Of a stretch of DNA of 24,198 nucleotides, positions 1,052-24,198 are shown one piece after another. This DNA is from Eledone cirrhosa (lineage: Eukaryota), in NCBI GenBank assembly GCA_964016885.1, contig CAXHJY010001056.1:1-24198 (forward strand), written 5' to 3'. The notes below the pieces were generated by a model, which was not told the DNA's origin, searched no databases, and saw nothing but the letters and a program-made list of their open reading frames with translations. The translations under genes were made by a program, and so were the position numbers. Positions within the stretch are counted from its first letter, which is position 1. Each line of letters begins with the position of its first letter.

Positions 1052-2008
1052 ATGGACTGCATGCAGGAAAAATGGGAAAAATGTGAAATCAGGAGTCAGC
1101 GAAACTGGTCGAAGATTGAACTAGCGGTTTTGATCAAGGGGTGGACTATGGCTGATGGGTCTCCACCAAGCAAAAAGATGGCGGAGAACCTGAAGAGCCA
1201 TGGGTTTATGAGGACCCTGGTACAGATAAAGAGAAAAGAAATTGAGAAGGCGTATGTCCTCATAGCGCCTCATATGGCGATGCTAAGCCGTGTCCTCAGG
1301 GAGGAGAAAACCGAAGGGAGGGATGAGGAGAAGGAGAGGGAAAAGGAAGAGGAAAAAGAGGGGGAAAAGGAAAAGGAGGAGAGCACAAGCACGGACCTGA
1401 AAGAAAATGATATACCCTCCGCTACAGGCAGGGAGGGCAGGCCGGGCAACCAACAAGCTAAGGGCAAAGGTGAAAAGCGAAATCACCTTCCGAAGGAGAA
1501 CCAAGTGCAGAGGGACCAGTGGACAACTGTTCAAAGAAAGAACAGAAAGCACCGAGACACTGGGAGCAAAAATCCCCAAGTAATGTGCAAGTTTTTCAAG
1601 AACGGGACATGCTGGCATGGAGAGACAGGGATGGGATGCAGATTCGCCCACCCTAGGTCTCGAACGAACTATGCCCATCATACTCGCGCAACATGCCCCA
1701 GCCTAAGCCGAAATAAGCCGCTCCAGAAGTATGCTGATGTCGCGCGTGCTGCACCAACAAGGAGAAGGCACGCTCATGCCGACGAGATACAGATGGCAGC
1801 AGCAGATCAGAAAAATTTTTTAGTGATGGCAGAGAAGATTGTGGGACAGCTGACCTGGCTGCATCGTCTCCAGAGCCAGGGTCATCCACACCAGCACTCG
1901 AGACCACCGCAGTTAAGGGACCCAGAGTGGCCGCCGCTGACACCAGACCAGGTGTCATACCGACAGCCATTACTGGCACCCCAAAAGTCACACCAGTGCT
2001 GCTGCTGA
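1052..2008 (+). CDS. LINE-A ORF1 protein (318 aa): N-terminal Myb/SANT-like domain, E/K-rich linker, CCCH zinc finger
   Basis: First ATG in the 707..2008 frame (MDCMQEKW). RNWSKIELAVLIKGW...GFMRTLVQIKRK resembles a Myb/SANT-like trihelix. CKFFKNGTCWHGETGMGCRFAH = C-x7-C-x8-C-x3-H. The upstream S/L/P-rich part is just the CT tract. Confidence 0.75.
   Translation: MDCMQEKWEKCEIRSQRNWSKIELAVLIKGWTMADGSPPSKKMAENLKSHGFMRTLVQIKRKEIEKAYVLIAPHMAMLSRVLREEKTEGRDEEKEREKEEEKEGEKEKEESTSTDLKENDIPSATGREGRPGNQQAKGKGEKRNHLPKENQVQRDQWTTVQRKNRKHRDTGSKNPQVMCKFFKNGTCWHGETGMGCRFAHPRSRTNYAHHTRATCPSLSRNKPLQKYADVARAAPTRRRHAHADEIQMAAADQKNFLVMAEKIVGQLTWLHRLQSQGHPHQHSRPPQLRDPEWPPLTPDQVSYRQPLLAPQKSHQCCC
1816..1822 (+). 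promoter_or_regulatory. Candidate -1 ribosomal frameshift slippery heptamer T TTT TTA (LINE-A)
   Basis: ORF1 codons AAT TTT TTA GTG (N-F-L-V). The -1 frame is stop-free from 1717 and continuous with ORF2. Confidence 0.6.
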
Positions 2009-4955
2009 ATGTCAGGGGCCTGGTGAAACTCAGCAACATGAGTAAAATTTCCTACCTGGGAGACTTAGCCATAAGCAATCAAGCACTATGCATGGCACTA
2101 ACCGAAACGCACCTGACAAGCAGTATAGCAGATGCAGAAATACATATACCGAAATATACTGTATTTCGTTCGGACAGGAAGGAGAGAACTCATGGTGGGG
2201 TTGCTCTGTATATCCGTGAAGATGTCACACCAATTGTACTGTTGACACATTCAAACTCAGTCTGTGACACACTGATAATACATATGAAGCAACTACAGAC
2301 GGTAATATGTGTCACATATCGGCCGCCCGATGCCCCCAGTCATGAGGGTAAATTTGAGGATAGCCTAAGTAGGATAGAAGAGGTCCTTGACAAACTGGAC
2401 CAGGGTCTCAACATCCTACTGCTGGGAGACTTCAACCTACCAAAGGTCAAATGGCCTGAGGGCCACCTCCTCCCTGGAATGACGTCAATAGAACAGAGAC
2501 AGACGGAATCCCTGCTGGCCCTCACACACAGGCTGTTCATGGAGCAAGCAATACTCCTCCCAACAAGAGGCGAAAATGTCCTGGACCTCTGTTTTACAAA
2601 CAACGAAGTGCTCATCCACAATGTAAAGGTGACACCAACAATTCTCTCGGATCATAACTTGGTAGAGCTAATGATATGTGGTCCAAGAGAACCAACAGAG
2701 ACAAAACCACCAAGAAGCTCCGGGACGCTATCCAGCCTTAACTTCTACGGGGCTGACTGGAAGAAGATTAAGAGTGAAATCCGGAAGCAAACATGGAGTG
2801 CAAACATCGCCACACAAGACACTAACACACAATTTCAACACTTCATGACAACAATACACACCATATGCAAAAAGTGTGTCCCGGAGAAAGAGGCAAACAG
2901 ACACAAAAATCTTATTCCCAGAGATAGGAAAATCCTTATGAGACGTAGAACTAAACTCTCAAACCAGTTGAATAGAGAACAAAACCAAAACAAGAAGGAA
3001 TCCTATTTGAAACGTGCACTACTTGACACCGAGATTGCACTCAAGCTTTCACATGGGAATGAGAGGGCAAGGAAAGAGAACATGGCCATAGAAAACATTA
3101 AAACAAACCCTAAGGCCTTCTTTAAATTTGCAAAAGAAACTGCCTCAGTACACTGCAAGATTGGACCACTCTTCCACACGGACGGTTCATTAACCGAAAA
3201 TCCCCAAGAGATATGTGAAATACTGAACGAACAGTACAAAAGTGTCTTCACATGTCCACTGAGGCACATGCAAATAACGAAGCCAGAGGAGTTCTTTGAT
3301 GCCACAACACTACATCAAGAAATGGCAACCATCAACCACATAGACATAACGGAAGAGGATGTGGTGTACGCCATTGATGAAATTAGAACAGACTCGGCTG
3401 CTGGACCTGATGGATTCCCAGCAGTTCTCCTAAAAATATGTAAGCGGGCCTTAGCAACTCCACTGAAGATGCTCTTCAGAAGCTCCTTGGCTAGCGGTGT
3501 ACTACCCAGGGAGCTGAAAGAAGGCACAATATGCCCTATCCATAAAGGAGGTAGTAGAGCAGAGGCCAAGAACTATAGGCCAGTCTCCCTGACGTCGCAT
3601 ATCAGTAAGGTCATGGAGCGAGTCGTCAGAAAGAAACTAATCACTTTCCTCGAAGAAAATGACTGCCTGACTAGCATGCAACATGGCTTCCGCCCAGGAA
3701 GAAGCTGCCTTACACAGCTGCTACATCACTACGACTGGGTACTGAGACAGCTACTAGACAGCTCACATGTAGACGTGATATATCTTGACTTTGCGAAGGC
3801 CTTTGACAAGGTCGACCACGGAATGATATGTCACAAACTACACGGACTCGGCATACTGGAAAAGTAGGTGAGTGGCTGCATGGCTTCCTGAGGGACAGAA
3901 GCCAGGCAGTCGCAGCAAATGGGGCCCTCTCGAGGGAAACACCGATAACAAGTGGGGTGCCTCAGGGGACAGTCCTGGGACCACTACTGTTTTTGGTGGC
4001 TCTCTCGGACATGCCCTCTGTGGTGCATGCAACAACATCCCTCACTAGCTATGCTGATGACACTAAGGTAGCACAGGCAATCAAAAACCCGGCTGACGCT
4101 GCCCTCTTACAGCAGGATCTGGATGCCATATACAGATGGGCGGAAGAAAACAACATGCAGTTTAATGCTGGCAAATTCCAAGCCCTACAATACAAACCTG
4201 CAAACACAAACACAAATATAGCGGAACACAGCTACACAGGACCAGGAGGGACCGATATCCCCGTGTCAAAATCGATACGAGACCTGGGCATAGACATGAG
4301 CGATGATGCATCTTTTTCTTCACACATCATGAAGGTGGCGACAGCATGTAGACGATTCGCTGGCTGGATCTTGAGGACTTTCCTTACAAGAGATCGAAAC
4401 ACCATGTTGACACTGTGGAGGACTTTTGTCCTAAGCCGCCTGGACTACTGCTCCCAGCTGTGGTCACCCCATAGTGTCAAACTAACCACAGAGCTTGAGG
4501 CAATCCAGCGAAGCTACACCAAGAGGATTGCCAAGATGAGGGAGACAAGCTACTGGGAGAGGCTGAAGGAACTGAACCTCTACTCCTTGGAGCGAAGACG
4601 GGAGAGATACGCAGTGATCTACATGTGGAAAATCCTGGAGGGACTAGCACCAAACTTTGGCATTGGGAGCTGGACCAACCGTCGAACAGGACGTCACTGT
4701 GTGGTGCCAAAGGTCCCGTCTTCCACATCTAGAATAAGGAGCAGGTATTGCAATAGCCTGGGATTCAAGGGCCCTCAACTCTTCAACAGGCTGCCGAGGC
4801 ATCTGCGAGACTTGCATGACGTGGAGGTGGATGTCTTTAAGAAACATCTCGACAGGATCCGGGATGAGCCCACAGCAAGACACGAGGGAAACCTAAGGGC
4901 AGCAGCAACAAACTCCCTCCTACACCAGTGGCCAACCTATACAGGCTGGAGATAA
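1816..4955 (+). CDS. LINE-A ORF2: apurinic-type endonuclease plus reverse transcriptase, with one 1-bp frameshift at ~3855
   Basis: APE motifs LLNVRGL, ALTETHL, YRPP, LLGDFN, LDL, SDH; RT motifs [32 protein letters not shown]. ORFs 1927..3867 and 3828..4955 join if one A is restored (GGC ATA [A]CT GGA AAA GTA = G-I-T-G-K-V). Confidence 0.92.
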
Positions 4956-5021
4956 AATGTGTAGCAACAAGGGCGGTGCCCCAGCATGGCCTCAGCCGGA
5001 TGGCTGAAACAGGTAAAAGAG

Positions 5022-5128
5022 TATACATATATATATATATATACATATACACATATATACACATATATACACATATATACATATATATACACATATATAC
5101 ATATATATACACATATATACATATATAT

Positions 5129-5175
<47 letters not shown>

Positions 5176-5272
5176 CATATACATATATATATATACATAT
5201 ACATATATATATATACATATACATATATATATATATATACATATACATATACATATATATATATACATATAC

Positions 5273-5327
<55 letters not shown>

Positions 5328-5334
5328 CATATAC

Positions 5335-5389
<55 letters not shown>

Positions 5390-5398
5390 CATATACAT

Positions 5399-5433
<35 letters not shown>

Positions 5434-5686
5434 TATATACATATATATATATACATATATATATACATATATATATATACATATACATATACATATATAC
5501 ATATACATATATATATACATATATATATATACATATACATATATATATACATATATATATATACATATACATATATATATACATATATATATACATATAT
5601 ATATATACATATACATATATATATATACATATACATATATATATATATACATATATATATATACATATACATATATATATATATAC

Positions 5687-5721
<35 letters not shown>

Positions 5722-6012
5722 CATATACATACATATACATATATATATATACATATACATATATATATACATATATATATATACATATACATATACATAT
5801 ATACATATACATATATATACATATATATATATACATATACATATATATATACATATATATATATACATATACATATATATATACATATACATATACATAT
5901 ACATATATATATATACATATATATACATATATATATATACATATACATATATATATATACATACATATATATATATACATATACATATATATATATACAT
6001 ATATACATATAC

Positions 6013-6046
<34 letters not shown>

Positions 6047-6112
6047 ATATATATAAGTTTCTTTATACATATATATATATATATACACATATATATATAT
6101 ACATATATATAC

Positions 6113-6207
<95 letters not shown>

Positions 6208-6370
6208 CATATATACATATATATACATATATATATATACATATATATACATATATATATATATACACATATATATACACATATATATATATACATATAT
6301 ATACACATATATATATATATACATATATACATATATATACATATATATACACATATATATACATATATAC

Positions 6371-6401
<31 letters not shown>

Positions 6402-6608
6402 CATATATATATATACATATATACATATATATATACATATACATATATATACATATACATATATATACATATACATATATATATATATACATATACATAT
6501 ATATACATATATATACATATACATACATATACATATGTATATATATACATATACATATATATACATATACATATATATACACATATATATACATATACAT
6601 ATATATAC

Positions 6609-6639
<31 letters not shown>

Positions 6640-6642
6640 TAT

Positions 6643-6673
<31 letters not shown>

Positions 6674-6704
6674 TACATATATATATACATATATATATAT
6701 ATAC

Positions 6705-6737
<33 letters not shown>

Positions 6738-6738
6738 C

Positions 6739-6797
<59 letters not shown>

Positions 6798-6815
6798 CAT
6801 ATATATATACATATA

Positions 6816-6847
<32 letters not shown>

Positions 6848-6914
6848 CATATATATATACATATATATATACATATATATATACATATATATATACATAT
6901 ATATATATATATAC

Positions 6915-6945
<31 letters not shown>

Positions 6946-7050
6946 CATATATATATACACATATATATATACATATATATATATATATACATATATATAT
7001 ACATATATACATATATATATACATATATATATATATACATATATATATAC

Positions 7051-7081
<31 letters not shown>

Positions 7082-7082
7082 C

Positions 7083-7133
<51 letters not shown>

Positions 7134-7134
7134 C

Positions 7135-7165
<31 letters not shown>

Positions 7166-7190
7166 CATATATATATACATATATATATAC

Positions 7191-7221
<31 letters not shown>

Positions 7222-7294
7222 CATATATATATACATATATATATACATATATATATATATATACATATATATATACATATATATATATATATAC

Positions 7295-7325
<31 letters not shown>

Positions 7326-7326
7326 C

Positions 7327-7377
<51 letters not shown>

Positions 7378-7378
7378 C

Positions 7379-7451
<73 letters not shown>

Positions 7452-7676
7452 TATATACATATGCACATATATATATACATATATATATACATATATATAT
7501 ATACATATATATATACATATATATATACATATATATATACATATATATATACATATATATATACATATATATATACACATATATATATACATATATATAT
7601 ACATATATATATACATATATATATACATATATATATACATATATATATACATATATATATATACATATATATATAC

Positions 7677-7735
<59 letters not shown>

Positions 7736-7751
7736 CATATATATAATATAC

Positions 7752-7800
<49 letters not shown>

Positions 7801-7832
7801 CATATATATACATATACATATATATAATATAC

Positions 7833-7867
<35 letters not shown>

Positions 7868-8104
7868 CATATATATATACATATATATACATATACATAT
7901 ATATACATATACATATATATACATATATATATATACATATATATACATATATATATATACATATATATATATACATATATATATATACATATATATATAT
8001 ACATATATATATATACATATATATATATACATATACATATATATATATATACATATATATATATACATATATATATATATACATATATATATATACATAT
8101 ACAC

Positions 8105-8135
<31 letters not shown>

Positions 8136-8258
8136 CATATACATATATATATATATACATATATATATATACATATACATATATATATATATACATATAT
8201 ATATATACATATACATATACATATATATATACATATATATATATACATATACATATAC

Positions 8259-8290
<32 letters not shown>
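5022..8290. repeat. Compound (TA)n(CA) microsatellite array, ~3.3 kb
   Basis: TA runs punctuated by CA on the + strand; a 9-nt non-repeat interruption at 6056-6064. Confidence 0.98.
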
Positions 8291-8292
<2 letters not shown>

Positions 8293-8897
8293 TGTTATAT
8301 TTGGGGAGGGTCATATTTGCGTAATATTGCCAGAATTAATAACAGAACACACTCACTGTTTGGTTGGTTTTCGCTTCTCGCTGTCTTTTATATATATATA
8401 TCTGCGATCTAACTTACTCGGTCCTCAATGTTGCCATTGACTGACCGGCGGTCAAAAATAATACAGATACAATATAGACAAACACATATATATATAGTTT
8501 ACATAAATCTTTCGTTGCACATCTGCAACATCGTCAGTGGTGTTATATTCATTGTTCCTCCTGTTGTGTTGTATGTCTACGCCATTTTTTTGTTCAGTCA
8601 ATGGCGTAGACATACAACACAACAGGAGGAACAATGAATATAACACCACTGACGATGTTGCAGATGTGCAACGAAAGATTTATGTAAACTATATATATAT
8701 GTGTTTGTCTATATTGTATCTGTATTATTTTTGACCGCCGGTCAGTCAATGGCAACATTGAGGACCGAGTAAGTTAGATCGCAGATATATATATATAAAA
8801 GACAGCGAGAAGCGAAAACCAACCAAACAGTGAGTGTGTTCTGTTATTAATTCTGGCAATATTACGCAAATATGAGCCTCCCCAAATATAACAATAT
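8289..8897. repeat. Long near-perfect palindrome: 298-bp arms (8289-8586 / 8600-8897), 13-nt loop
   Basis: Paired positions sum to 17186 at both ends, so no net indel; one mismatch seen (G8310/G8876); loop tttttgttcagtc. Confidence 0.95.
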
Positions 8898-8938
8898 CTG
8901 TTTCGACACACGATTTCATATAAAAAACCTCGCAAAAC

Positions 8939-10957
<2,019 letters not shown>

Positions 10958-11233
10958 ATACTTAACTAAAACACACACACACGAACTTGTGAGTACATTT
11001 TCCTTTAACTACAAATTATTATTATATACTTTCGTCTTTTCATTAACTTAATTAATTTCAAATAACCAGAATATACATATATATATATATATATACTCAT
11101 ATTTATATATATACGCTTCTCACTCACACACAAGAAAAACAAAAAACAAAAATAAATCAAAAATAAATTAAAAAAAAAAAAATATATATATATTGAAATA
11201 CTTAACTAAAACACACACACACTCAAAACTAGA

Positions 11234-12424
11234 ATGGCTAACCAGCAAAAATCCAAACAGAACTGGTCTGATAATGAAATCGACATTCTAATAAACACAT
11301 GGCATTGCCTTTCCCAAACAGAAAATATAGATGCTTCATCTCTGAACGACATTGCTAAACGTACAGTTCAATTTTTGAAAACTCGATCTGAACAACAGAT
11401 TCAAAATAAATTAAAGCAAATCGAAATTGCTTTTAAATTAATCAATAAACATTTGGATAAACTACGGTGTGTTTTCTCTTCGAATGCTGTCCAGCAGCAG
11501 CAACAACAACAACAGCAGCTACAACAGCAACAACAACAACAACAGCAGCTACAACAGCAACAACAACAACAGCTACAACAACAACATCAACAACAGCTAC
11601 AACAACAACATCAACAACAGCAACAACAACAGTGTGAACCACTCCTTGATTCATCAACAATGGCCGATCTACTAAATGAAACTATTGACCCCCCAGTAGC
11701 CTCTGTCTCACAGCATGAAACGCCACATCCTTTCTCTGGCCCAGCAGTCCAATCATCACCACTGCCAACATCTCTGCCTACTACTACTACTACTACTACA
11801 ACATTTTTGTCTACTGCTATGTCAAGGAATTTACCTTCTAATACCAGAACAAGAACTCTCCCTCCCACAGTCCACAAAGGTCGTCAAATCCTACCCAAAC
11901 CATCATCTACACCTCTCACAACACCCACACCCATATACCCACCCACTCGAAACCCCATCATTTGCCGCTACTCTCTACGCTATAGAATATGTACGGATAG
12001 TGGCTGCAAATTCACCCATTTACCTAGGACAAAACGATCTATCCCCACAAACAGCCACCACCATAATACATACTCTAATTTAACACCAACACAACCACCA
12101 ATAACTCAAACAAGGAATCCACAAATCTGCCGTTTTTCCCTGCGAGACAGATTGTGTTTAGACCGGGATTGTCCCTTTACCCATCTCCCGGGGACCCGTC
12201 GGATAAATGAAAATAAAATTAAAAATAAAAGCAAAAACAAAAACCATAACCTACATAAAAATAACCACTACCACAGTCACCAACAGTCTTCTAAACAGGA
12301 AACTTCTTCCTCTTTTTTAGCCATAATGAATCTGGCAAAAGAACTGGAAAAAAACATTCGAGCTATCACCCAGCACCACCCTCCACTATCACCCCACTGC
12401 ACAAACTCCCATTGCTGCCATTAA
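11234..12424 (+). CDS. LINE-B ORF1 protein (396 aa): Myb/SANT-like N-terminus, polyQ and P/T/S linker, two CCCH zinc fingers
   Basis: QNWSDNEIDILINTW...RSEQQIQNKLKQI; CRYSLRYRICTDSGCKFTH and CRFSLRDRLCLDRDCPFTH (both C-x8-C-x4-C-x3-H). Confidence 0.82.
   Translation: MANQQKSKQNWSDNEIDILINTWHCLSQTENIDASSLNDIAKRTVQFLKTRSEQQIQNKLKQIEIAFKLINKHLDKLRCVFSSNAVQQQQQQQQQLQQQQQQQQQLQQQQQQQLQQQHQQQLQQQHQQQQQQQCEPLLDSSTMADLLNETIDPPVASVSQHETPHPFSGPAVQSSPLPTSLPTTTTTTTTFLSTAMSRNLPSNTRTRTLPPTVHKGRQILPKPSSTPLTTPTPIYPPTRNPIICRYSLRYRICTDSGCKFTHLPRTKRSIPTNSHHHNTYSNLTPTQPPITQTRNPQICRFSLRDRLCLDRDCPFTHLPGTRRINENKIKNKSKNKNHNLHKNNHYHSHQQSSKQETSSSFLAIMNLAKELEKNIRAITQHHPPLSPHCTNSHCCH
11492..11632 (+). repeat. (CAA/CAG)n repeat encoding polyglutamine within ORF1
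   Basis: cagcagcagcaacaacaa... in the ORF1 frame. Confidence 0.9.
12313..12319 (+). promoter_or_regulatory. Candidate -1 ribosomal frameshift slippery heptamer T TTT TTA (LINE-B)
   Basis: ORF1 codons TCT TTT TTA GCC (S-F-L-A). The -1 frame opens after TAA at 12292-12294 and runs without a stop into ORF2. Confidence 0.62.
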
Positions 12425-15400
12425 CAAACAAACAAATTAACAACACACCAAAACAATTAAAACCATCCACTCTCGCCTCTACATTTTTGCTTAACGCCCA
12501 AGGCATCAGCCCTTCCACCAATACTCAAAAATGGAAGATCAAATTCCTGGAGGACTGGATTGATGTCCATCCAAACCACATCCCTTTCTTCGTCCTCACT
12601 GAAACCCATCTCAGTAACCTCCACTTGGAAGCCGAGGTGAAAGTGAAAAATTTCAAAGCCATCCGTGCTGATCGCGCTGGCAGAAGAAAGGGCGGAACTG
12701 CCATTTATGTCCATAATTCTTTCTCAACAGAGGCTATGAACATATTCACTAATGGATACTGTGAGGCAGTCACTGTATTCAGTCAAACCAACAACCTATT
12801 AGTAGTTGGGCTCTATAGGCCACCCCAAACGCCTGTACCATGCTTCAAGGAATGCCTCAACAGCATAAAGTGTTTCATCCAAGAGTGTCACCCTGACAAC
12901 ATCTTAATGATGGGGGACTTCAACCTCCCCGGAGTTGACTGGTCCACAAACACCCTGCCACCAGGTTCTTCTGCCTCAACCTCTGACAGGGAAGCTGTGG
13001 AATCGCTTCTTGACTTCATGGATGATTTCTTCCTATCCCAACTAGTGCTCGAACCAACGAGGTGCCACAAAAACGTCCTAGACTTAATTTTCAGCAATCA
13101 CACTGACAATATCCACAATATTGCAGTGGAGAAAACTCTACTCTCTGATCATGACATGGTTCTCTGTGATCTGAGATTCCACCGTCCAATATACAAACCC
13201 AATGTCATTTCTCCTGTCCATCCGTTTGACGCTATGGATTTCCACAATGCAAACTGGAAGCGATCAGTCATGATCTTGCACATGTCGACTGGTCCTTCAC
13301 GCACACTCATACACCCACTAACATCAAAAAGTCCTGGCAGACATTTGTGGACACTGTTACAAACATATGTGCTAAACACACCCCATTAAGAACTATAAAC
13401 AAATCTAAGAGCAGAATCCCTAGAAATAGAAAAACGCTCATCAGAAAAATTAAGAGAACGAACAAAAAAATCAACAATCTGAAATACTGTCAGCAGCAAC
13501 ACATCAACTTGACTGCCATTTCATCACTAGAGATTAAAAAACATAACCTCCAAAACAACATAATGTCCCTCATCAACAATCAGAGAAGAGCTGAAGAGGC
13601 CTGGGCCATTGAGAAGATCAAACTCAATCCCAAAGTGTTCTTTTCATTTGCAAAAAAACACAAAATCACTGGCTCTACTGTTGGCCCTCTAATTGATGAA
13701 AATGGCACTCTTCAAGACAATGCTAAAACTATGGGTGAGATACTGCAGAAACAATACTGCTCTGTTTTCAGCAATCCTGATATGGCCGATCTGGGCTGTA
13801 TCGGCGATGTTACTCCCCATTACACCTTATCGGACATAACGTTTGGCGCCCCTGATGTCTTGGCGGCAATAAAGGAAATCAAGCATAATTCAGCAGTAGG
13901 TCCCGATAGGTTCCCTGCTTGTGTCTTGAAGGCGTGTCAACACCAACTTGCTTCTCCTCTTGCCAATCTGTGGCGGAACTCACTGGATGCTGGATATGTG
14001 CCAGAAAACCTTCTATCCCAGTCTGTTGTCCCAGTTTTCAAAAAGGGAAACAAATCCCTTGCCGTGAATTACCGTCCAATCTCACTCACCTCTCATATCA
14101 TTAAGGTATTTGAGCGAGTGGTGAGATCGCGAATGACCCACTTCCTTGAGAGTAACAATATGCTGAACTCCAACCAGCATGGATTCCGTAATGGAAGGGA
14201 TTGCCTGACGCAACTACTGCATCACTTTGATGACATTTTGAGAGCCTTGGGAGAGGGTTCCAACACTGATGTTATCTACCTTGATTTCAGCAAGGCCTTT
14301 GACAGGGTTGATCATAACATTCTACTGAGAAAGCTGTCCAATATTGGTGTCACTGGAAAGCTGCTGCAGTGGATCAAGAGCTTCCTGTCAAACAGAACCC
14401 AACATGTTGTAGTTGAGGGAGTCAAATCAAGCCCAGCCAAAGTCAGTAGTGGAGTCCCACAAGGCACTGTGTTGGGCCCACTTCTCTTCATCATCTATAT
14501 TAATGACATCACTGACATCATCAAACACAGCAACATTAAAATTTTCGCTGATGATTCCAAGCTCCAAAAGGTCATCAATGGCGTGGATGACCGGATAAGC
14601 CTTCAGTCAGACCTACTGGCTGTTACCCAATGGGCAGAAAAGAACAACATGTTACTGAACGAAGACAAATTCGAACTGATCCACTTTGGAAAAGAGGATG
14701 CTCTGAAACTCCCGTACTCCCTTCCCTCCGGGGAAACTCTCGTGGCATCTAACAACATCAGAGACTTGGGAGTAACCGTGGACAGCAACATAAGCTGGAC
14801 CACGCATATAAGCAGCAAAGTTGACATGGCCCGCAGAATGTGTTCCTGGATCCTCAGAACCTTCCAGTCGAGAGATTCCCGCACCATTATCCTTCTCTTC
14901 TCTACTTTCGCCCGACCACACCTTGAATACTGTTGTCCACTGTGGTCTCCCCACACGAAACAAAGTATCATGAAACTTGAAGCTCCTCAAAGGGCAATCA
15001 CGAAAAAGATAGATGGCATGTCAGACCTTGACTACTGGGGTCGATTGGAAAACCTGAAACTTTACTCACTCCAACGTCGCCGTGAGCGTTATATTATCTG
15101 CATGATGTGGAAAATGTTCCATCATCACTGCCCAAATGATGTTGGCATCGCCTTCAAGATACACCCAAGGCTTGGGCCCCGTGCTATCCGTCCCATTCAA
15201 AAATCTAAATCGCAACTCATAACAACAATACGGCACAATTATTTCACCTCAATCGGCCCTGCTCTCTTCAACATCACACCAGGACACGTCAAAACAGAAA
15301 CTGACCACACAAAATTCAAGAAGTCTTTGGACAAATTCCTCCAAGTAATCCCGGACAAACCACCCACACCCGGATATGTCTCCGCAAACAGTAATTCTCT

Positions 15401-15431
15401 TCTCGAATGGGCCATGGTGCCCAAATTCTGA
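12313..15431 (+). CDS. LINE-B ORF2: APE endonuclease plus reverse transcriptase, with one 1-bp frameshift at ~13256
   Basis: FLLNAQG, VLTETHL, YRPP, MGDFN, LDL, SDH; [32 protein letters not shown]. ORFs 12412..13389 and 13347..15431 join if one G is restored (AAC TGG [G]AA GCG ATC = N-W-E-A-I). Confidence 0.92.
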
Positions 15432-15506
15432 ATTGAAAGACTTCGCCAGGTGGTGCTATTAAGTTAGACATGGCCTGGGCCAATACTGGCCAAAACATTT
15501 CAAAGT

Positions 15507-15567
15507 TATATATATATACATACATATACATATATACATACATACATATATATACATACATATATAC

Positions 15568-15633
<66 letters not shown>

Positions 15634-15652
15634 ACATATATATACATACATA

Positions 15653-15693
<41 letters not shown>

Positions 15694-15744
15694 ACATACA
15701 TATATATACATATATATATATACATACATATATATATATACATA

Positions 15745-15799
<55 letters not shown>

Positions 15800-15909
15800 A
15801 CATATATATATATACATACATACATATATATACATATATACATATATATACATATATACATATATATACATATATATACATATATACATATATATATATA
15901 CATACATAC

Positions 15910-15958
<49 letters not shown>

Positions 15959-17035
15959 CATACATATATATATATACATACATATATATATATACATACA
16001 TATATATATATACATACATATATATATATACATATATATATATACATACATATATATATATACATATATATATATACATACATATATATATATACATACA
16101 TATATATATATACATACATATATATATATATACATACATATATATATACATATATATATATACATATATATATATACATATATATATATACATATATATA
16201 TATACATATATATATATACATATATATACATATATATATATATACATATATATACATATATATACATATACATACATATATATACATATATATACATATA
16301 CATACATATATATACATATATATACATATATATACATATATATACATATATATACATATATATATATATACATATATATACATATATATATATACATATA
16401 TATACATATATATATACATATATATATACATATATATATACATATATATACATATATATATATACATATATATATATATACATATATATACATATATATA
16501 TATATACATATATATACATATATATATATATATACATATATATACATATATATATATATACATATATATACATATATATATATATACATATATATACATA
16601 TATATATATATACATATATATACATATATATATATATACATATATATACATATATATATATATACATATATATACATATATATATATATACATATATATA
16701 TACATATATATGTATATATATATACATATATACATATATATGTATATATATATACATATATACATATATATGTATATATATATACATATATAGGTATATA
16801 TATATACATATATATGTATATATATATACATATATACGTATATATATATATATATATACGTATATATATATACATATATACGTATATATATATACATATA
16901 TACGTATATATATATACATATATACGTATATATATACATATATACGTATATATATATACATATATACGTATATATATATATATATATACATATACGTATA
17001 TATATATATATACATATACGTATATATATATACAT
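15507..17035. repeat. Compound (TA)n(CA) microsatellite array with TACA, TATG and TACG variant patches
   Basis: Direct reading; CG-containing units are confined to ~16837-17020. Confidence 0.98.
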
Positions 17036-18609
17036 AAGGCATCTGGGTCTGTAGGTCACACTATAACCACACGTATCGTTAACCAGGTAATACTAGAGGG
17101 GGCCATACCAAAAGATTGGTGCAGTAGCATCATTGTCAACTTCTACAAAGGTAAAGGCGATGCACTAGATAGAGGAAACTATAGAGGTATAAAGTTGATG
17201 GACCAGGTCATGAAAGTAACAGAAAGAGTTATAGCACAGCTGATTAGGGACCGGGTGAATATAGACGAGATGCAATTTGGGTTTGTACCAGGAAAAGGCA
17301 CCACTGATGCGCTCTTCCTTGTGAGGCAATTACAGGAAAAGTACCTAGCTAAAAGTAAGCCACTCTACTTGGCATTGTCGACCTTGAGAAAGCCTTTGAC
17401 AGAGTTCCACGTGCAGTAATCTGGTGGGCTCTTAGAAAACTAGGAGTAGATGAATGGCTTGTGAAAGCGGTACAAGCCATGTATAGGGGAGCAGTCAGCA
17501 AAGTTAGGATTGGCAATGAGTATAGCGAGGAATTTAGCGTACAGGTTGGGGTCCACCAGGGCTCTGTTCTTAGCCCTCTCCTGTTCATCATAGTCCTGCA
17601 GGCAATAACGGAGGAGTTTAAGACCGGATGCCCATGGGAACTCCTGTATGCTGATGACCTCGCACTCATAGCTGAATCTATGGTAGAACTAGAGAATAAA
17701 TTCCAAACCTGGAAGCAGGGACTAGAGAGAAAGGGCCTCAAAGTCAACATGACAAAGACTAAGGTCCTTATAAGTAGACGAGAAAACAGAACCCAGATCC
17801 CCTCAGGGAAATGGCCTTGCTCAGTATGTAGGAAAGGTGTAGGTAGGAACTCCATTCTTTGCCCCAAATGCAAACAATGGGTACACAAGAGATGTAGCGG
17901 GATCTCAGGAAGCTTAATTAAGAATGTAGGATTCACATGCAGCAGCTGTGCTGAAACAGCAAGCAAACAGCCAAAGGAAACAAGTACCACCAATCTCTGG
18001 GAGGGCCCTGTAGAAACAGTAGACAGCTTCTGCTACCTAGGTGACCGAATTAGCAACGGAGGTGGGTGCTCAGAAAGTACAATAACTAGGGTAAGAACGG
18101 GATGGAAGAAGTTTAGGGAACTACTACCACTGCTAGCTGCAAAAGGCTTCTCCCTCAGAATGAAAGGCAGACTGTATGATGCGTGTATCCGAACAGCGAT
18201 GTTGCATGGTAGTGAGACCTGGGCGCTGAAGGTGGAAGACTTACGTAGATTAGAGAGAAACGAAGCCTGCATGCTCCGATGGATGTGTAACAGTAATATA
18301 CGTGAACGACAAAGCATAAAGGAATTGAGAGAGAGACTGAGCATAAGAGGAATCAAATGCTGCGTGCAGGAGAGGCGGTTACGCTGGTATGGACATGTGA
18401 TGCGTATGAAGGATGACAGCTGCATAAAAAGGTGCAGAGCACTAGAAGTTGATGGAAACCGCGGAGTGGGGAGACCCAAGATGACTTGGGATGAGGTGAT
18501 AAAAGCCGACCTTACCCAACTACACCTCTCAAAGTCAATGACACACGACCGTGACTTCTGGCGTCACGCAGTAATACAGGGTACCCGACCTCCCATGGGT
18601 ACATGCTGA
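17036..18609 (+). pseudogene. Truncated RTE reverse transcriptase with a 1-bp deletion at ~17375
   Basis: Starts mid-ORF (KASGSVGH). ggcattgtcgac versus ggcatttgtcgac in copy 2 breaks [10 protein letters not shown]. Confidence 0.88.
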
Positions 18610-18910
18610 AGCATATAAACAATATGCCCCCCCCCCACCGCAAGGTGGTCGTGGAGGTGCCACGGCAAAAAAGCACCCAGCCCACACTGTAAAGTGGACG
18701 TGTAGGCGCCACGAAAAAGCACCCAGCACTCACTGTAAATGAGGTTGGTGTTAGGAAGGGCATCCAGCTGTAGAAATCAAGCCAGATCAGTTCCTGTATG
18801 AGCAAGGCATGGTCAGCCGACCAGACACTGCCCACAACAGGACAACCCGTCTAACCCATGCTAGCGTGGAAGAACGGACGTAAAACGGTGATGATGATGA
18901 TGATGATGAT
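17036..18910 (+). mobile_element. RTE-clade LINE, copy 1, 5'-truncated, with (GAT)n tail
   Basis: RT with [36 protein letters not shown]; ~300-nt 3' UTR ending GGACGTAAAACGGT(GAT)n. Confidence 0.93.
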
Positions 18911-19880: not shown

Positions 19881-20101
19881 ATAAAATATTAAACAAATAA
19901 TGAATAAACAATTCCTTATATTAAACAAAAAAAGTTCATTATTTAATGATAGTTTGTATAATTTTGTATAATTTTGTACATAGATCTGTTGAATATGCAT
20001 GCCACTCTAACACATATATATCCTAGAAACGATCGTTAAATAATGAACTTTTTTTGTTTAATATAAGGAATTGTTTATTCATTATTTGTTTAATATTTTA
20101 T
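19881..20101. repeat. 66-bp perfect inverted repeats (19881-19946 / 20036-20101) around an 89-nt spacer; MITE/foldback-like
   Basis: ataaaatattaaacaaataatgaataaacaattccttatattaaacaaaaaaagttcattatttaa and its exact reverse complement; imperfect pairing extends ~12 bp further inward. Confidence 0.9.
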
Positions 20102-21935: not shown

Positions 21936-22275
21936 ATTCATTCATTTCATTTTTACGTCTGCTTTTTCCCTGCTTCCAAGGGTGGGACGGGAACTGATTC
22001 TGGCTTGATTTCTACAGCTGGATGCCCTTCCTAACACCAACCTCATTTACAGTGAGTGCTGGGTGCTTTTTTGCCGTGGCACCTCCACGACCACTTTGCA
22101 GTGGAATGGTAGGGACCCCAGTCCCTATCATCTCATTTCTACAGCTGAGTAAACTGGAGCAATCTGAAATAAAGTGTCTTGCTCAAGGAAACAACACATC
22201 ACCCGTTCTGAGAATTGAACTCACAACCTTTCAATTGCAAGCCCAATGCTCTAACCAGTAAGCCATGTGCCTCCA
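21936..22275 (-). mobile_element. tRNA-derived SINE (~340 bp) with an RTE-derived 3' part and (AATG)n tail
   Basis: Minus strand: A-box-like TGGCTTACTGG (22255-22265), B-box-like GTTCAATTC (22212-22220), central CCTTGAGCAAGACACT motif (22173-22188), a segment (21990-22104) nearly identical to the RTE 3' UTR, and tail CAGACGTAAAAATGAAATGAATGAAT. Confidence 0.85.
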
Positions 22276-22280
22276 TATAT

Positions 22281-24198
22281 ATCATCATCACCGTTTTACG
22301 TCCGTTCTTCCACGCTAGCATGGGTTAGACGGGTTGTCCTGTTGTGGGCAGTGTCTGGTCGGCTGACCATGCCTTGCTCATACAGGAACTGATCTGGCTT
22401 GATTTCTACAGCTGGATGCCCTTCCTAACACCAACCTCATTTACAGTGAGTGCTGGGTACTTTTTCGTGGCGCCTACACGTCCACTTTACAGTGTAGGCT
22501 GGGTGCTTTTTTGCCGTGGCACCTCCACGGCCACCTTGCGGTGGAGGGGGGGGGGGGGCATATTGTTTATATGCTTCAGCATGTACCCATGGGAGGTCGG
22601 GTACCCTGTATTACTGCGTGACGCCAGAAGTCACGGTCGTGTGTCATTGACTTTGAGAGGTGTAGTTGGGTAAGGTCGGCTTTTATCACCTCATCCCAAG
22701 TCATCTTGGGTCTCCCCACTCCGCGGTTTCCATCAACTTCTAGTGCTCTGCACCTTTTTATGCAGCTGTCATCCTTCATACGCATCACATGTCCATACCA
22801 GCGTAACCGCCTCTCCTGCACGCAGCATTTGATTCCTCTTATGCTCAGTCTCTCTCTCAATTCCTTTATGCTTTGTCGTTCACGTATATTACTGTTACAC
22901 ATCCATCGGAGCATGCAGGCTTCGTTTCTCTCTAATCTACGTAAGTCTTCCACCTTCAGCGCCCAGGTCTCACTACCATGCAACATCGCTGTTCGGATAC
23001 ACGCATCATACAGTCTGCCTTTCATTCTGAGGGAGAAGCCTTTTGCAGCTAGCAGTGGTAGTAGTTCCCTAAACTTCTTCCATCCCGTTCTTACCCTAGT
23101 TATTGTACTTTCTGAGCACCCACCTCCGTTGCTAATTCGGTCACCTAGGTAGCAGAAGCTGTCTACTGTTTCTACAGGGCCCTCCCAGAGATTGGTGGTA
23201 CTTGTTTCCTGTGGCTGTTTGCTTGCTGTTTCAGCACAGCTGCTGCATGTGAATCCTACATTCTTAATTAAGCTTCCTGAGATCCCGCTACATCTCTTGT
23301 GTACCCATTGTTTGCATTTGGGGCAGAGAATGGAGTTTCTACCTACACCTTTCCTACATACTGAGCAAGGCCATTTCCCTGAGGGGATCTGGGTTCTGTT
23401 TTCTCGTCTACTTACAAGGACCTTAGTCTTTGTCATGTTGACTTTGAGGCCCTTTCTCTCTAGTCCCTGCTTCCAGGTTTGGAATTTATTCTCTAGTTCT
23501 ACCATAGATTCAGCTATGAGTGCGAGGTCATCAGCATACAGGAGTTCCCATGGGCATCCGGTCTTAAACTCCTCTGTTATTGCCTGCAGGACTATGATGA
23601 ACAGGAGAGGGCTAAGAACAGAGCCCTGGTGGACCCCAACCTGTACGCTAAATTCCTCGCTATACTCATTGCCAATCCTAACTTTGCTGACTGCTCCCCT
23701 ATACATGGCTTGTACCGCTTTCACAAGCCATTCATCTACTCCTAGTTTTCTAAGAGCCCACCAGATTACTGCACGTGGAACTCTGTCAAAGGCTTTCTCA
23801 AGGTCGACAAATGCCAAGTAGAGTGGCTTACTTTTAGCTAGGTACTTTTCCTGTAATTGCCTCACAAGGAAGAGGGCATCAGTGGTGCCTTTCCCTGGTA
23901 CAAACCCAAATTGCATCTCGTCTATATTCACCCGGTCCCTAATCAGCTGTGCTATAACTCTTTCTGTTACTTTCATGACCTGGTCCATCAACTTTATACC
24001 TCTATAGTTTCCTCTATCTAGTGCATCGCCTTTACCTTTGTAGCAGTTGACAATGATGCTACTGCACCAATCTTTTGGTATGGCCCCCTCTAGTATTACC
24101 TGGTTAACGATACGTGTGGTTATAGTGTGACCTACAGACCCAGATGCCTTCAGCATCTCGGCAGCTATACCCGATGGACCGGTTGCCTTCCCTATCTT
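22281..24198 (-). mobile_element. RTE-clade LINE, copy 2, continuing beyond the window edge
   Basis: Reverse complement of copy 1 over 22281-24150 with about a dozen differences; short (GAT)n tail at 22281-22290. Confidence 0.94.
22576..24198 (-). CDS. RTE reverse transcriptase (partial, uninterrupted) containing a PHD finger
   Basis: The frame is open to the window edge (KIGKATGPSGIAAEMLK...), so the ATG at 24156 is internal; [14 protein letters not shown] and FCYLG are present. Confidence 0.92.
   Translation of the reverse strand, partial: KIGKATGPSGIAAEMLKASGSVGHTITTRIVNQVILEGAIPKDWCSSIIVNCYKGKGDALDRGNYRGIKLMDQVMKVTERVIAQLIRDRVNIDEMQFGFVPGKGTTDALFLVRQLQEKYLAKSKPLYLAFVDLEKAFDRVPRAVIWWALRKLGVDEWLVKAVQAMYRGAVSKVRIGNEYSEEFSVQVGVHQGSVLSPLLFIIVLQAITEEFKTGCPWELLYADDLALIAESMVELENKFQTWKQGLERKGLKVNMTKTKVLVSRRENRTQIPSGKWPCSVCRKGVGRNSILCPKCKQWVHKRCSGISGSLIKNVGFTCSSCAETASKQPQETSTTNLWEGPVETVDSFCYLGDRISNGGGCSESTITRVRTGWKKFRELLPLLAAKGFSLRMKGRLYDACIRTAMLHGSETWALKVEDLRRLERNEACMLRWMCNSNIRERQSIKELRERLSIRGIKCCVQERRLRWYGHVMRMKDDSCIKRCRALEVDGNRGVGRPKMTWDEVIKADLTQLHLSKSMTHDRDFWRHAVIQGTRPPMGTC

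Follow-up and report, generated by a model that had tools for sequence, protein, structure and literature searches.

The ORF1 proteins of LINEs are regarded as RNA chaperones that carry RRM, coiled-coil, CCHC, PHD or esterase modules. For the CR1 lineage, a published classification covers two-ORF elements in which an APE-type endonuclease precedes the reverse transcriptase (RT) and a modular ORF1 falls into types I–V, its Table 1 listing PHD, RRM, CCHC, transposase-22, coiled coil, zf/lz and esterase (PMC4120745). Myb, SANT, CCCH and frameshift are all absent from the main text of that study, which bears out the statement of an earlier note on this DNA that CR1/L2-group ORF1s are usually described with other domains (PHD, RRM, esterase or coiled coil). 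R2-like elements have a single ORF with a C-terminal RLE endonuclease, and zinc finger and Myb domains give target recognition in R2-type elements, as far as the consulted part of the source goes (PMC13708176). TRAS1 and SART1, of the R1 clade, are APE-type LINEs found in telomeric repeats, with a target that is set by the endonuclease according to the part of the source consulted (PMC1919474). Fusion of the TRF1 Myb domain, or of TRF1, to the TRAS1 endonuclease raised repeat cleavage 21–45-fold, with cut sites that stayed those of the endonuclease (PMC2868851, consulted in part). Harbinger elements encode Myb-like proteins with a SANT-Myb-trihelix motif that bind both the terminal repeats and the transposase, in the sections consulted of PMC9392472. 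In the consulted part of a review, HeT-A and TART are the only non-LTR elements named in connection with -1 frameshifting (PMC5009743). Among cephalopods, 13 recently active CR1 families have been described in Octopus vulgaris (PMC13282606, consulted in part), and a preference for (TA)n is described for Naiad elements, which occur in Octopus (PMC8557442, likewise).

We analysed a 24,198-nucleotide stretch of Eledone cirrhosa DNA (the window), which is a mobile-element mosaic with (TA/TACA)n arrays in between; the arrays account for 9608 of the 24198 bases (39.7%). Two APE-type LINEs are found in it, A (ORF1 at 1052-2008) and B (ORF1 at 11234-12424), each family being represented by a single copy within the window. 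Their RT cores are about 55% identical, and from motif likeness we presume both to be CR1 elements. Arrays lie 3' of A (5020..8290), 5' of B (8938..10957) and 3' of B (15505..17036), the last running up to an RTE-type copy on its 5' side, where that copy is truncated. Over the 12 kb spanned by these three arrays (5020-17036), the array variants are strongly polar, with TACA on the + strand and TGTA nearly absent. Two copies of an element that we take from its features to be RTE-type are 99% identical and lie in inverted orientation: copy 1 (17037-18898, + strand) is 5'-truncated and frameshifted near 17360-17420, and copy 2 occupies 22281-24149 on the - strand (an interval also given to 24198). 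They have (GAT)n tails and a PHD finger directly after the RT core (Pfam 26.8 bits, cut-off 24). About 117 bp at 21987-22104 match the RTE 3' UTR at 91–92% within a separate short element, which is probably a SINE with an RTE-shared tail. A 605-bp palindrome (8291-8895; 97.9% self-inverted) has a TA array on each side and is either a MITE-like element or an assembly fold-back; a second, weaker palindromic element (19883-20099; 81% self-inverted) also adjoins a TA array. Near the start of the window, a 61-bp direct repeat (98%; 1-61 and 188-248) flanks a short (TA)n array.

A and B resemble CR1-lineage LINEs in having two ORFs, an APE endonuclease ahead of the RT and a modular ORF1; all their features lie on the + strand. 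ORF1 of B is an open frame of 396 aa (11234..12424), and the end at 12200 given earlier falls short of it; ORF1 of A is an open frame of 318 aa (1052..2008). The shared N-terminal pattern that had been reported was recovered from both by pattern search: W-S-x-x-E-x3-L-I-x-x-W starts at residue 11 of B (nt 11264) and residue 19 of A (nt 1106), and R-[TS]-x-x-Q-I-x-x-K at residue 51 of B (nt 11384) and residue 54 of A (nt 1211). With 21 identities over 74 positions (pairwise E 3e-7), the two N-termini are homologous on the evidence of the alignment. As also described before, the linkers that follow are unrelated and of low complexity, E/K-rich in A and, in B, a (CAA/CAG)n-encoded polyglutamine linker (11495..11631) followed by a P/T-rich one. 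The region 5' of ORF1 B (10958..11233), in which the 5' end of the element is not delimited, contains a 25-bp direct repeat (10958-10982 and 11198-11222) bracketing 240 bp, which may reflect either duplication of the 5' part or a small insertion of independent origin. Ahead of ORF1 A runs a long CT-rich tract (720-1051) that ends in CAG four bases before the ATG and, because it resembles a splice acceptor, the 5' UTR of A may be spliced.

The top Pfam match of both N-terminal pieces was PF13837 (Myb_DNA-bind_4), with E 5.6e-5 (23.9 bits) for ORF1 B and E 0.21 (12.5 bits) for ORF1 A, both under the gathering cut-off of 27; no Myb or CCCH region from the window itself reached its cut-off in Pfam. 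In B the domain spans residues ~9-82 (11258..11479) and has three helices and a short fourth, as delimited by PF13837, AlphaFold and fold matches. That of A (1100..1297), in which the loop joining helix 1 to helix 2 is shorter, is weak alone and was placed by homology to B and by the family alignment. Relatives gave stronger matches: P0009 scored 31.7 bits, above the cut-off of 27, and five of the eight aligned family N-termini matched at E<=1 (best 6.1e-8). When 11 fetched proteins were scanned whole, only P0009, P0010 and a fish protein matched PF13837 at E<=1, and full-length P0005, P0006, P0012, P0013, P0014 and P0015 gave no Myb match in Pfam at that level. A search of 1.84 billion proteins returned four matches at E<=0.001, three being family-like fragments (P0009, P0010 and P0012) and the fourth the fish protein, which has seven PF13837 repeats (E 8e-5) and is the sole named full-library match. 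Scored against an HMM of the Myb/SANT repeats of this protein, ORF1 B reached 24.2 bits (0 of 1000 shuffles did so, maximum 10.9) and ORF1 A a marginal 9.5 bits (0 of 1000, maximum 9.1), in a test that is partly circular since the fish protein was itself found with B.

The conserved Trp/hydrophobic core and the R-[ST]-x-x-Q ahead of helix 3 are present (hhalign probability 81%, E 1.2e-5). R51, Q55 and K59, at or in helix 3, are invariant across all 10 alignment rows, and the helix-3/4 stretch is basic in each of the four sequences examined (K+R 5-8 against D+E 1-3). The domain shares with PF13837 proteins (Harbinger Myb-like/trihelix, MSANTD) the W-x3-E...L-x3-W...I-A...R-S-x2-Q...K pattern, the helix layout and, by eye, a fourth-helix motif (KHLDKLRCVF vs KFYEQLGRIL). 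It differs from them in heading a retrotransposon ORF1, in having Q-I for Q-C and in a shorter helix 3-4 stretch. By these sequence features the domain family is Myb_DNA-bind_4 (trihelix-like), located in ORF1, unlike the Myb of R2. Sequence searches of the PDB gave nothing significant, the best matches being the Z-alpha domains of PKZ (E 0.29) and GCN4 peptides (E 0.4-0.6). TA/CA repeats are able to form Z-DNA, and a Z-alpha (Z-DNA-binding) reading of 11330-11470 was considered; it was rejected, as the PDB match is not significant and the fold search gives it no support.

An AlphaFold model of the ORF1 B domain, built on a 10-row family-only alignment with no known Myb protein in it, had a pLDDT of 87.5 and a pTM of 0.73, with helices at residues 8-24, 32-42, 48-66 and 69-77. 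Among the 50 matches listed by VIA-align, most were Myb, SANT, GARP or homeodomain chains, led by RAD Myb (Z 6.9, rmsd 2.9, 60 aligned) and ARR1 (Z 6.9, rmsd 1.8, 57 aligned), with none of those listed at or above the bar of Z 8. Foldseek returned the same fold classes, the DNA-binding domain of Zeste among them, but no match at E<=0.001, and the SANT domains of DMAP1 and DNAJC2 were among the fold matches. Such a search cannot tell Myb from homeodomain, the fold giving the superfamily and the sequence the subfamily. A first model, made from a two-row alignment (pLDDT 65), had no Myb match and was dropped as uninformative.

The Myb likeness might in principle be chance, that is, a generic helical bundle. 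The sub-cut-off scores of the window proteins, the lack of a significant match in the PDB sequence searches and the first AlphaFold model would all suit this explanation. They are set against the P0009 score above the PF13837 cut-off, a sole named full-library match that is a multi-Myb protein, a confident model that matches Myb/homeodomain folds and the low confidence of the first model itself (pTM 0.30). We consider chance very improbable, and largely refuted already. The Myb/SANT-like assignment made in the earlier note agrees with the top PF13837 match, the P0009 score and the AlphaFold and Foldseek comparison it had called for, which predicts a Myb/homeodomain-type helical fold even though no Foldseek match reached E<=0.001. 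We are highly confident that the ORF1 N-terminus adopts a fold of this kind, predicted to be a divergent Myb/SANT (trihelix-type) one.

Both ORF1s had also been said to end in CCCH fingers. The fingers are present, as three motifs with C-x(7-8)-C-x(4-8)-C-x3-H ligands: two in B (11963..12019 and 12128..12184, each C-x8-C-x4-C-x3-H) and a single one in A (1586..1651, C-x7-C-x8-C-x3-H). Pfam scored them just below its cut-offs, zf-C3H1 matching the B finger region in two stretches (E 7.6e-4, 19.6 bits, cut-off 20.9) and zf-CCCH matching the A finger (E 0.0018, 18.6 bits, cut-off 20.5). They are not the end of the protein, however, which continues for about 80 residues in B and 118 in A. The residues past the last finger include the F-L slippery codons described below. 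A-type members also conserve a stretch beyond F-L as read in the ORF1 frame, a sign that the C-terminal part of unshifted ORF1p may be functional. P0005-P0008 and P0013 retain the A-type finger, and in the ESM Atlas the finger region of a relative has CCCH proteins as its neighbours, at lead level with all scores <0.9. The motifs very probably bind zinc, and the fingers likely bind the element's RNA, as expected from the CCCH family. CCCH-bearing ORF1s may also exist in crustacean CR1-like elements, in which case the fingers would be less new than the Myb domain.

ORF2 follows in the -1 frame relative to ORF1 in both elements. In B, frame 1 encodes a linker and an APE-type endonuclease (12295..13389) and has no ATG up to 12700; the RT and C-terminal region continue in frame 2 (13230..15431) after one frame switch near 13260, which is a mutation or an assembly error. 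In A, the linker, the endonuclease and the RT start are in frame 1 (1738..3867), whose first ATG (2038) lies inside the endonuclease, and frame 2 (3807..4955) follows one switch near 3855. Since each has a frame switch in ORF2, neither copy is intact as read. Exo_endo_phos_2 and RVT_1 are above the Pfam cut-offs in both A and B, with the APE endonuclease preceding the RT.

The sequence TTTTTTA occurs once in the coding region of each element, at 1816 in A and at 12313 in B, in phase and within the ORF1/ORF2 overlap. In B it forms the slippery heptamer U UUU UUA in -1 phase (12313..12319) and is the sole TTTTTTA in 11234-15431. In A, two heptamers overlap in -1 phase, A AAU UUU (1813) and U UUU UUA (1816), covering 1813..1822; we take this AAU UUU UUA to be the same as the HIV-1 site. 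At the codon usage of the element concerned, an F-L dipeptide would be spelled with the heptamer codons with a probability of about 0.004-0.005 per element. S-F-L is found at the matching place in P0006, P0007, P0008 and P0013. For a third family (C), two-frame decoding of P0008 against P0015, in which this region is translated in a different frame, was compatible only with T TTT TTA or T TTT CTA, in a comparison of two different copies with two of 21 steps infeasible. Within ~80 nt downstream, a method limited to structures without pseudoknots detected no 3' stimulatory RNA structure (z -0.07 in A, +0.18 in B). The ATG adjacent to the ORF1 stop of A sits in the ORF1 frame, and translational coupling there was rejected for this reason. 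The -1 frameshift that had been proposed to join ORF1 to the endonuclease-RT thus agrees with an in-phase UUUUUUA found once per element and an ORF2 with no AUG ahead of the endonuclease, and we think it likely that -1 ribosomal frameshifting at U UUU UUA fuses the two. The arrangement is like that of retroviral gag-pol in having U UUU UUA in the ORF overlap, and unlike it in belonging to a non-LTR element with no downstream stimulatory structure detected.

The named ORF1 relatives are all Octopus vulgaris proteins, and family C is among the relatives. A profile search of longer proteins gave four matches among 8000 candidates scored, all of them family members; P0003 and P0004, from a homologue search with full ORF1 B, were polyglutamine-only matches and were dropped. 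A contig scan with ORF2 of B yielded none from 30 candidates, and there was no match by tblastn against plasmids or in Rfam. Scanning contigs with the RT alignment gave 16 loci (L001-L016) from 115 candidates, in prokaryotic MAG records, where they are likely contaminating eukaryotic contigs. An RT tree without labelled references was built with 11 of these 16 loci, after four partial matches and L007, which nearly duplicates L006, had been set aside; it groups A and B with L001 (100/99) and separates this clade from the other ten RT relatives. L001 is the closest RT relative, and its contig does not include the ORF1 region. None of the 16 loci matched the family's N-terminal profile (best E 2) or had a credible ORF1 CCCH finger, three of the four regex matches falling in CA/TG repeats, and six upstream ORFs of the more distant RT relatives had no Myb or CCCH match. 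Two of the ten other RT relatives have upstream ORFs of SH3/esterase type. In these LINE ORFs, on contigs in bacterial MAG records (L003:4384-5637 and L002:4776-5420), an SH3 domain stands before a GDSL esterase, with Pfam values in L003 of E 6.8e-9 for SH3_9 and E 2.2e-10 for Lipase_GDSL_2.

The 3' UTRs of A (4972..5021) and B (15447..15506) each contain two adjacent predicted hairpins (z -2.03 and -2.59, respectively) and then run directly into (TA/TACA)n, with no 3' tail separable from the adjoining array. They have a motif in common and the same two-hairpin layout with different stem sequences, and the hairpins are likely an RT recognition signal. The earlier note had reasoned that a Myb domain fused to the endonuclease-RT could explain insertion into (TA)n, as a sequence-specific reader aiming insertions at microsatellites. 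In line with this, the 3' ends of A and B, set by the shared hairpins, join TA arrays directly, arrays lie on both sides of B, and the upstream open frame of P0010 reads MYMYMYVY, a translated TA/TG-type repeat, 18 codons ahead of the likely start. The target recognition by zinc finger and Myb in R2-type elements and the in vitro function of a Myb-endonuclease fusion (PMC2868851, in the part consulted) would be precedents. Yet array already makes up 39.7% of the window, and elements with no Myb-ORF1 seen adjoin it too: RTE copy 1 does so on either side, at the 5' end (which is truncated) as well as at the 3' end, and the first palindrome's left end and the second's right end also border arrays. 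Element ends that are delimited by arrays are partly circular evidence, a problem that affects neither the truncation point of the RTE copy nor the 3' ends of the LINEs; at the 3' end of RTE copy 2 there are just a few TA units. The 60 bases ahead of ORF1 A are CT-rich and not TA, and the nearest RT relative, L001, whose ORF1 is not on the contig, has no TA array after its 3' end. Elsewhere, Naiads prefer (TA)n with no mention of Myb in the consulted part of PMC8557442, and in TRAS/SART it is the endonuclease that sets the target (PMC1919474, consulted in part).

The claim that the Myb domain explains (TA)n insertion is thus not supported so far. Because elements without a Myb-ORF1 occupy the same repeats, TA targeting by this domain is unproven and currently a weak hypothesis, and we think a (TA)n reader improbable. 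The same holds for the fuller scenario in which an APE-type LINE captured a Harbinger/trihelix-type Myb, and -1 frameshifting of the retroviral kind hangs this domain and RNA-binding CCCH fingers on the endonuclease-RT as an independently evolved counterpart of the R2 module that steers insertion into (TA)n, which strikes us as doubtful. The position in TA arrays likely reflects endonuclease preference together with a general pile-up of mobile elements in arrays. A and B are like TRAS1/SART1 in being APE-type LINEs found in simple repeats. The Myb-like segment of TRAS is located in ORF2.

We somewhat favour DNA binding by the ORF1 domain and give about an even chance to its acting as a low-specificity DNA/chromatin tether. 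Most ribosomes would then make free, gag-like ORF1p and a minority a fusion of ~1300 (A) or ~1400 (B) residues. The CCCH fingers would hold the element RNA in cis, the Myb domain carried by the minority frameshift product would dock the particle loosely on DNA or chromatin, and the endonuclease, not the Myb domain, would choose the nick. If the frameshift occurs, such a protein would be like R2/RLE-type elements in placing a Myb-type domain upstream of the RT in one polypeptide, and unlike R2 in its APE-type N-terminal endonuclease, its two ORFs, its CCCH fingers downstream of the Myb and the status of the fusion as a minority product.

The fold does not fix the ligand, because Harbinger Myb-like proteins bind both terminal repeats and transposase. 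The domain could instead be a protein-interaction module, through SANT-like binding of histone tails or partners, nuclear import or ORF1p assembly, and not a reader of target DNA. SANT domains of DMAP1 and DNAJC2 among the fold matches speak for this, and Pfam reports no coiled coil or RRM in the ORF1s of A and B, so that assembly may depend on some other domain. In SANT histone readers, however, helix 3 is typically acidic, and the helix here is basic and has its R, Q and K invariant. Precedents for a protein module are the Harbinger Myb-like proteins, which bind the transposase and bring about its nuclear import (PMC9392472), and the PHD finger of several subgroups of other CR1 ORF1s (PMC4120745), both as given in the parts consulted. 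We rate this reading as rather unlikely. Binding to sequences of the element itself (the promoter DNA at the 5' side, the end of the cDNA, or the RNA) is quite improbable in our judgement. It would parallel Harbinger Myb-like proteins, which have a related domain type and bind the TIRs of their element (PMC9392472, in the sections consulted), and could draw on the 25-bp direct repeat in the 5' region of B and the 3' motif common to A and B, but in a self-comparison of the window the 5' region of A showed no DNA similarity to that of B. A loose tether on DNA or chromatin remains the reading that we prefer.

Myb/SANT or CCCH domains in a LINE ORF1 are undescribed in the part of the full-text literature searched, which lay outside Repbase Reports, subscription journals and bioRxiv supplements. 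The same holds, within that scope, for slippery-site frameshifting in CR1 elements (including PMC13343379 and, each consulted in part, PMC11203168, PMC10294476 and PMC4700185). The Myb/SANT and CCCH architecture of ORF1 in these CR1-like LINEs thus appears to be real and undescribed, a prior mention being possible. It would represent an added ORF1 type with a possible DNA-reading domain, and fusion of ORF1 to ORF2 by frameshifting is rarely documented for non-LTR elements in the sources consulted. Even if the domain does not steer insertion, the architecture would still be a compact, testable and new form of ORF1. If it does, an APE-type retrotransposon would be shown to bear an exchangeable module for targeting, which would be useful for RNA-based gene insertion tools and would help us to understand why octopus mobile elements crowd into TA arrays. 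Should Myb-steered insertion into (TA)n prove true, it would help to build the microsatellite-rich octopus genome.
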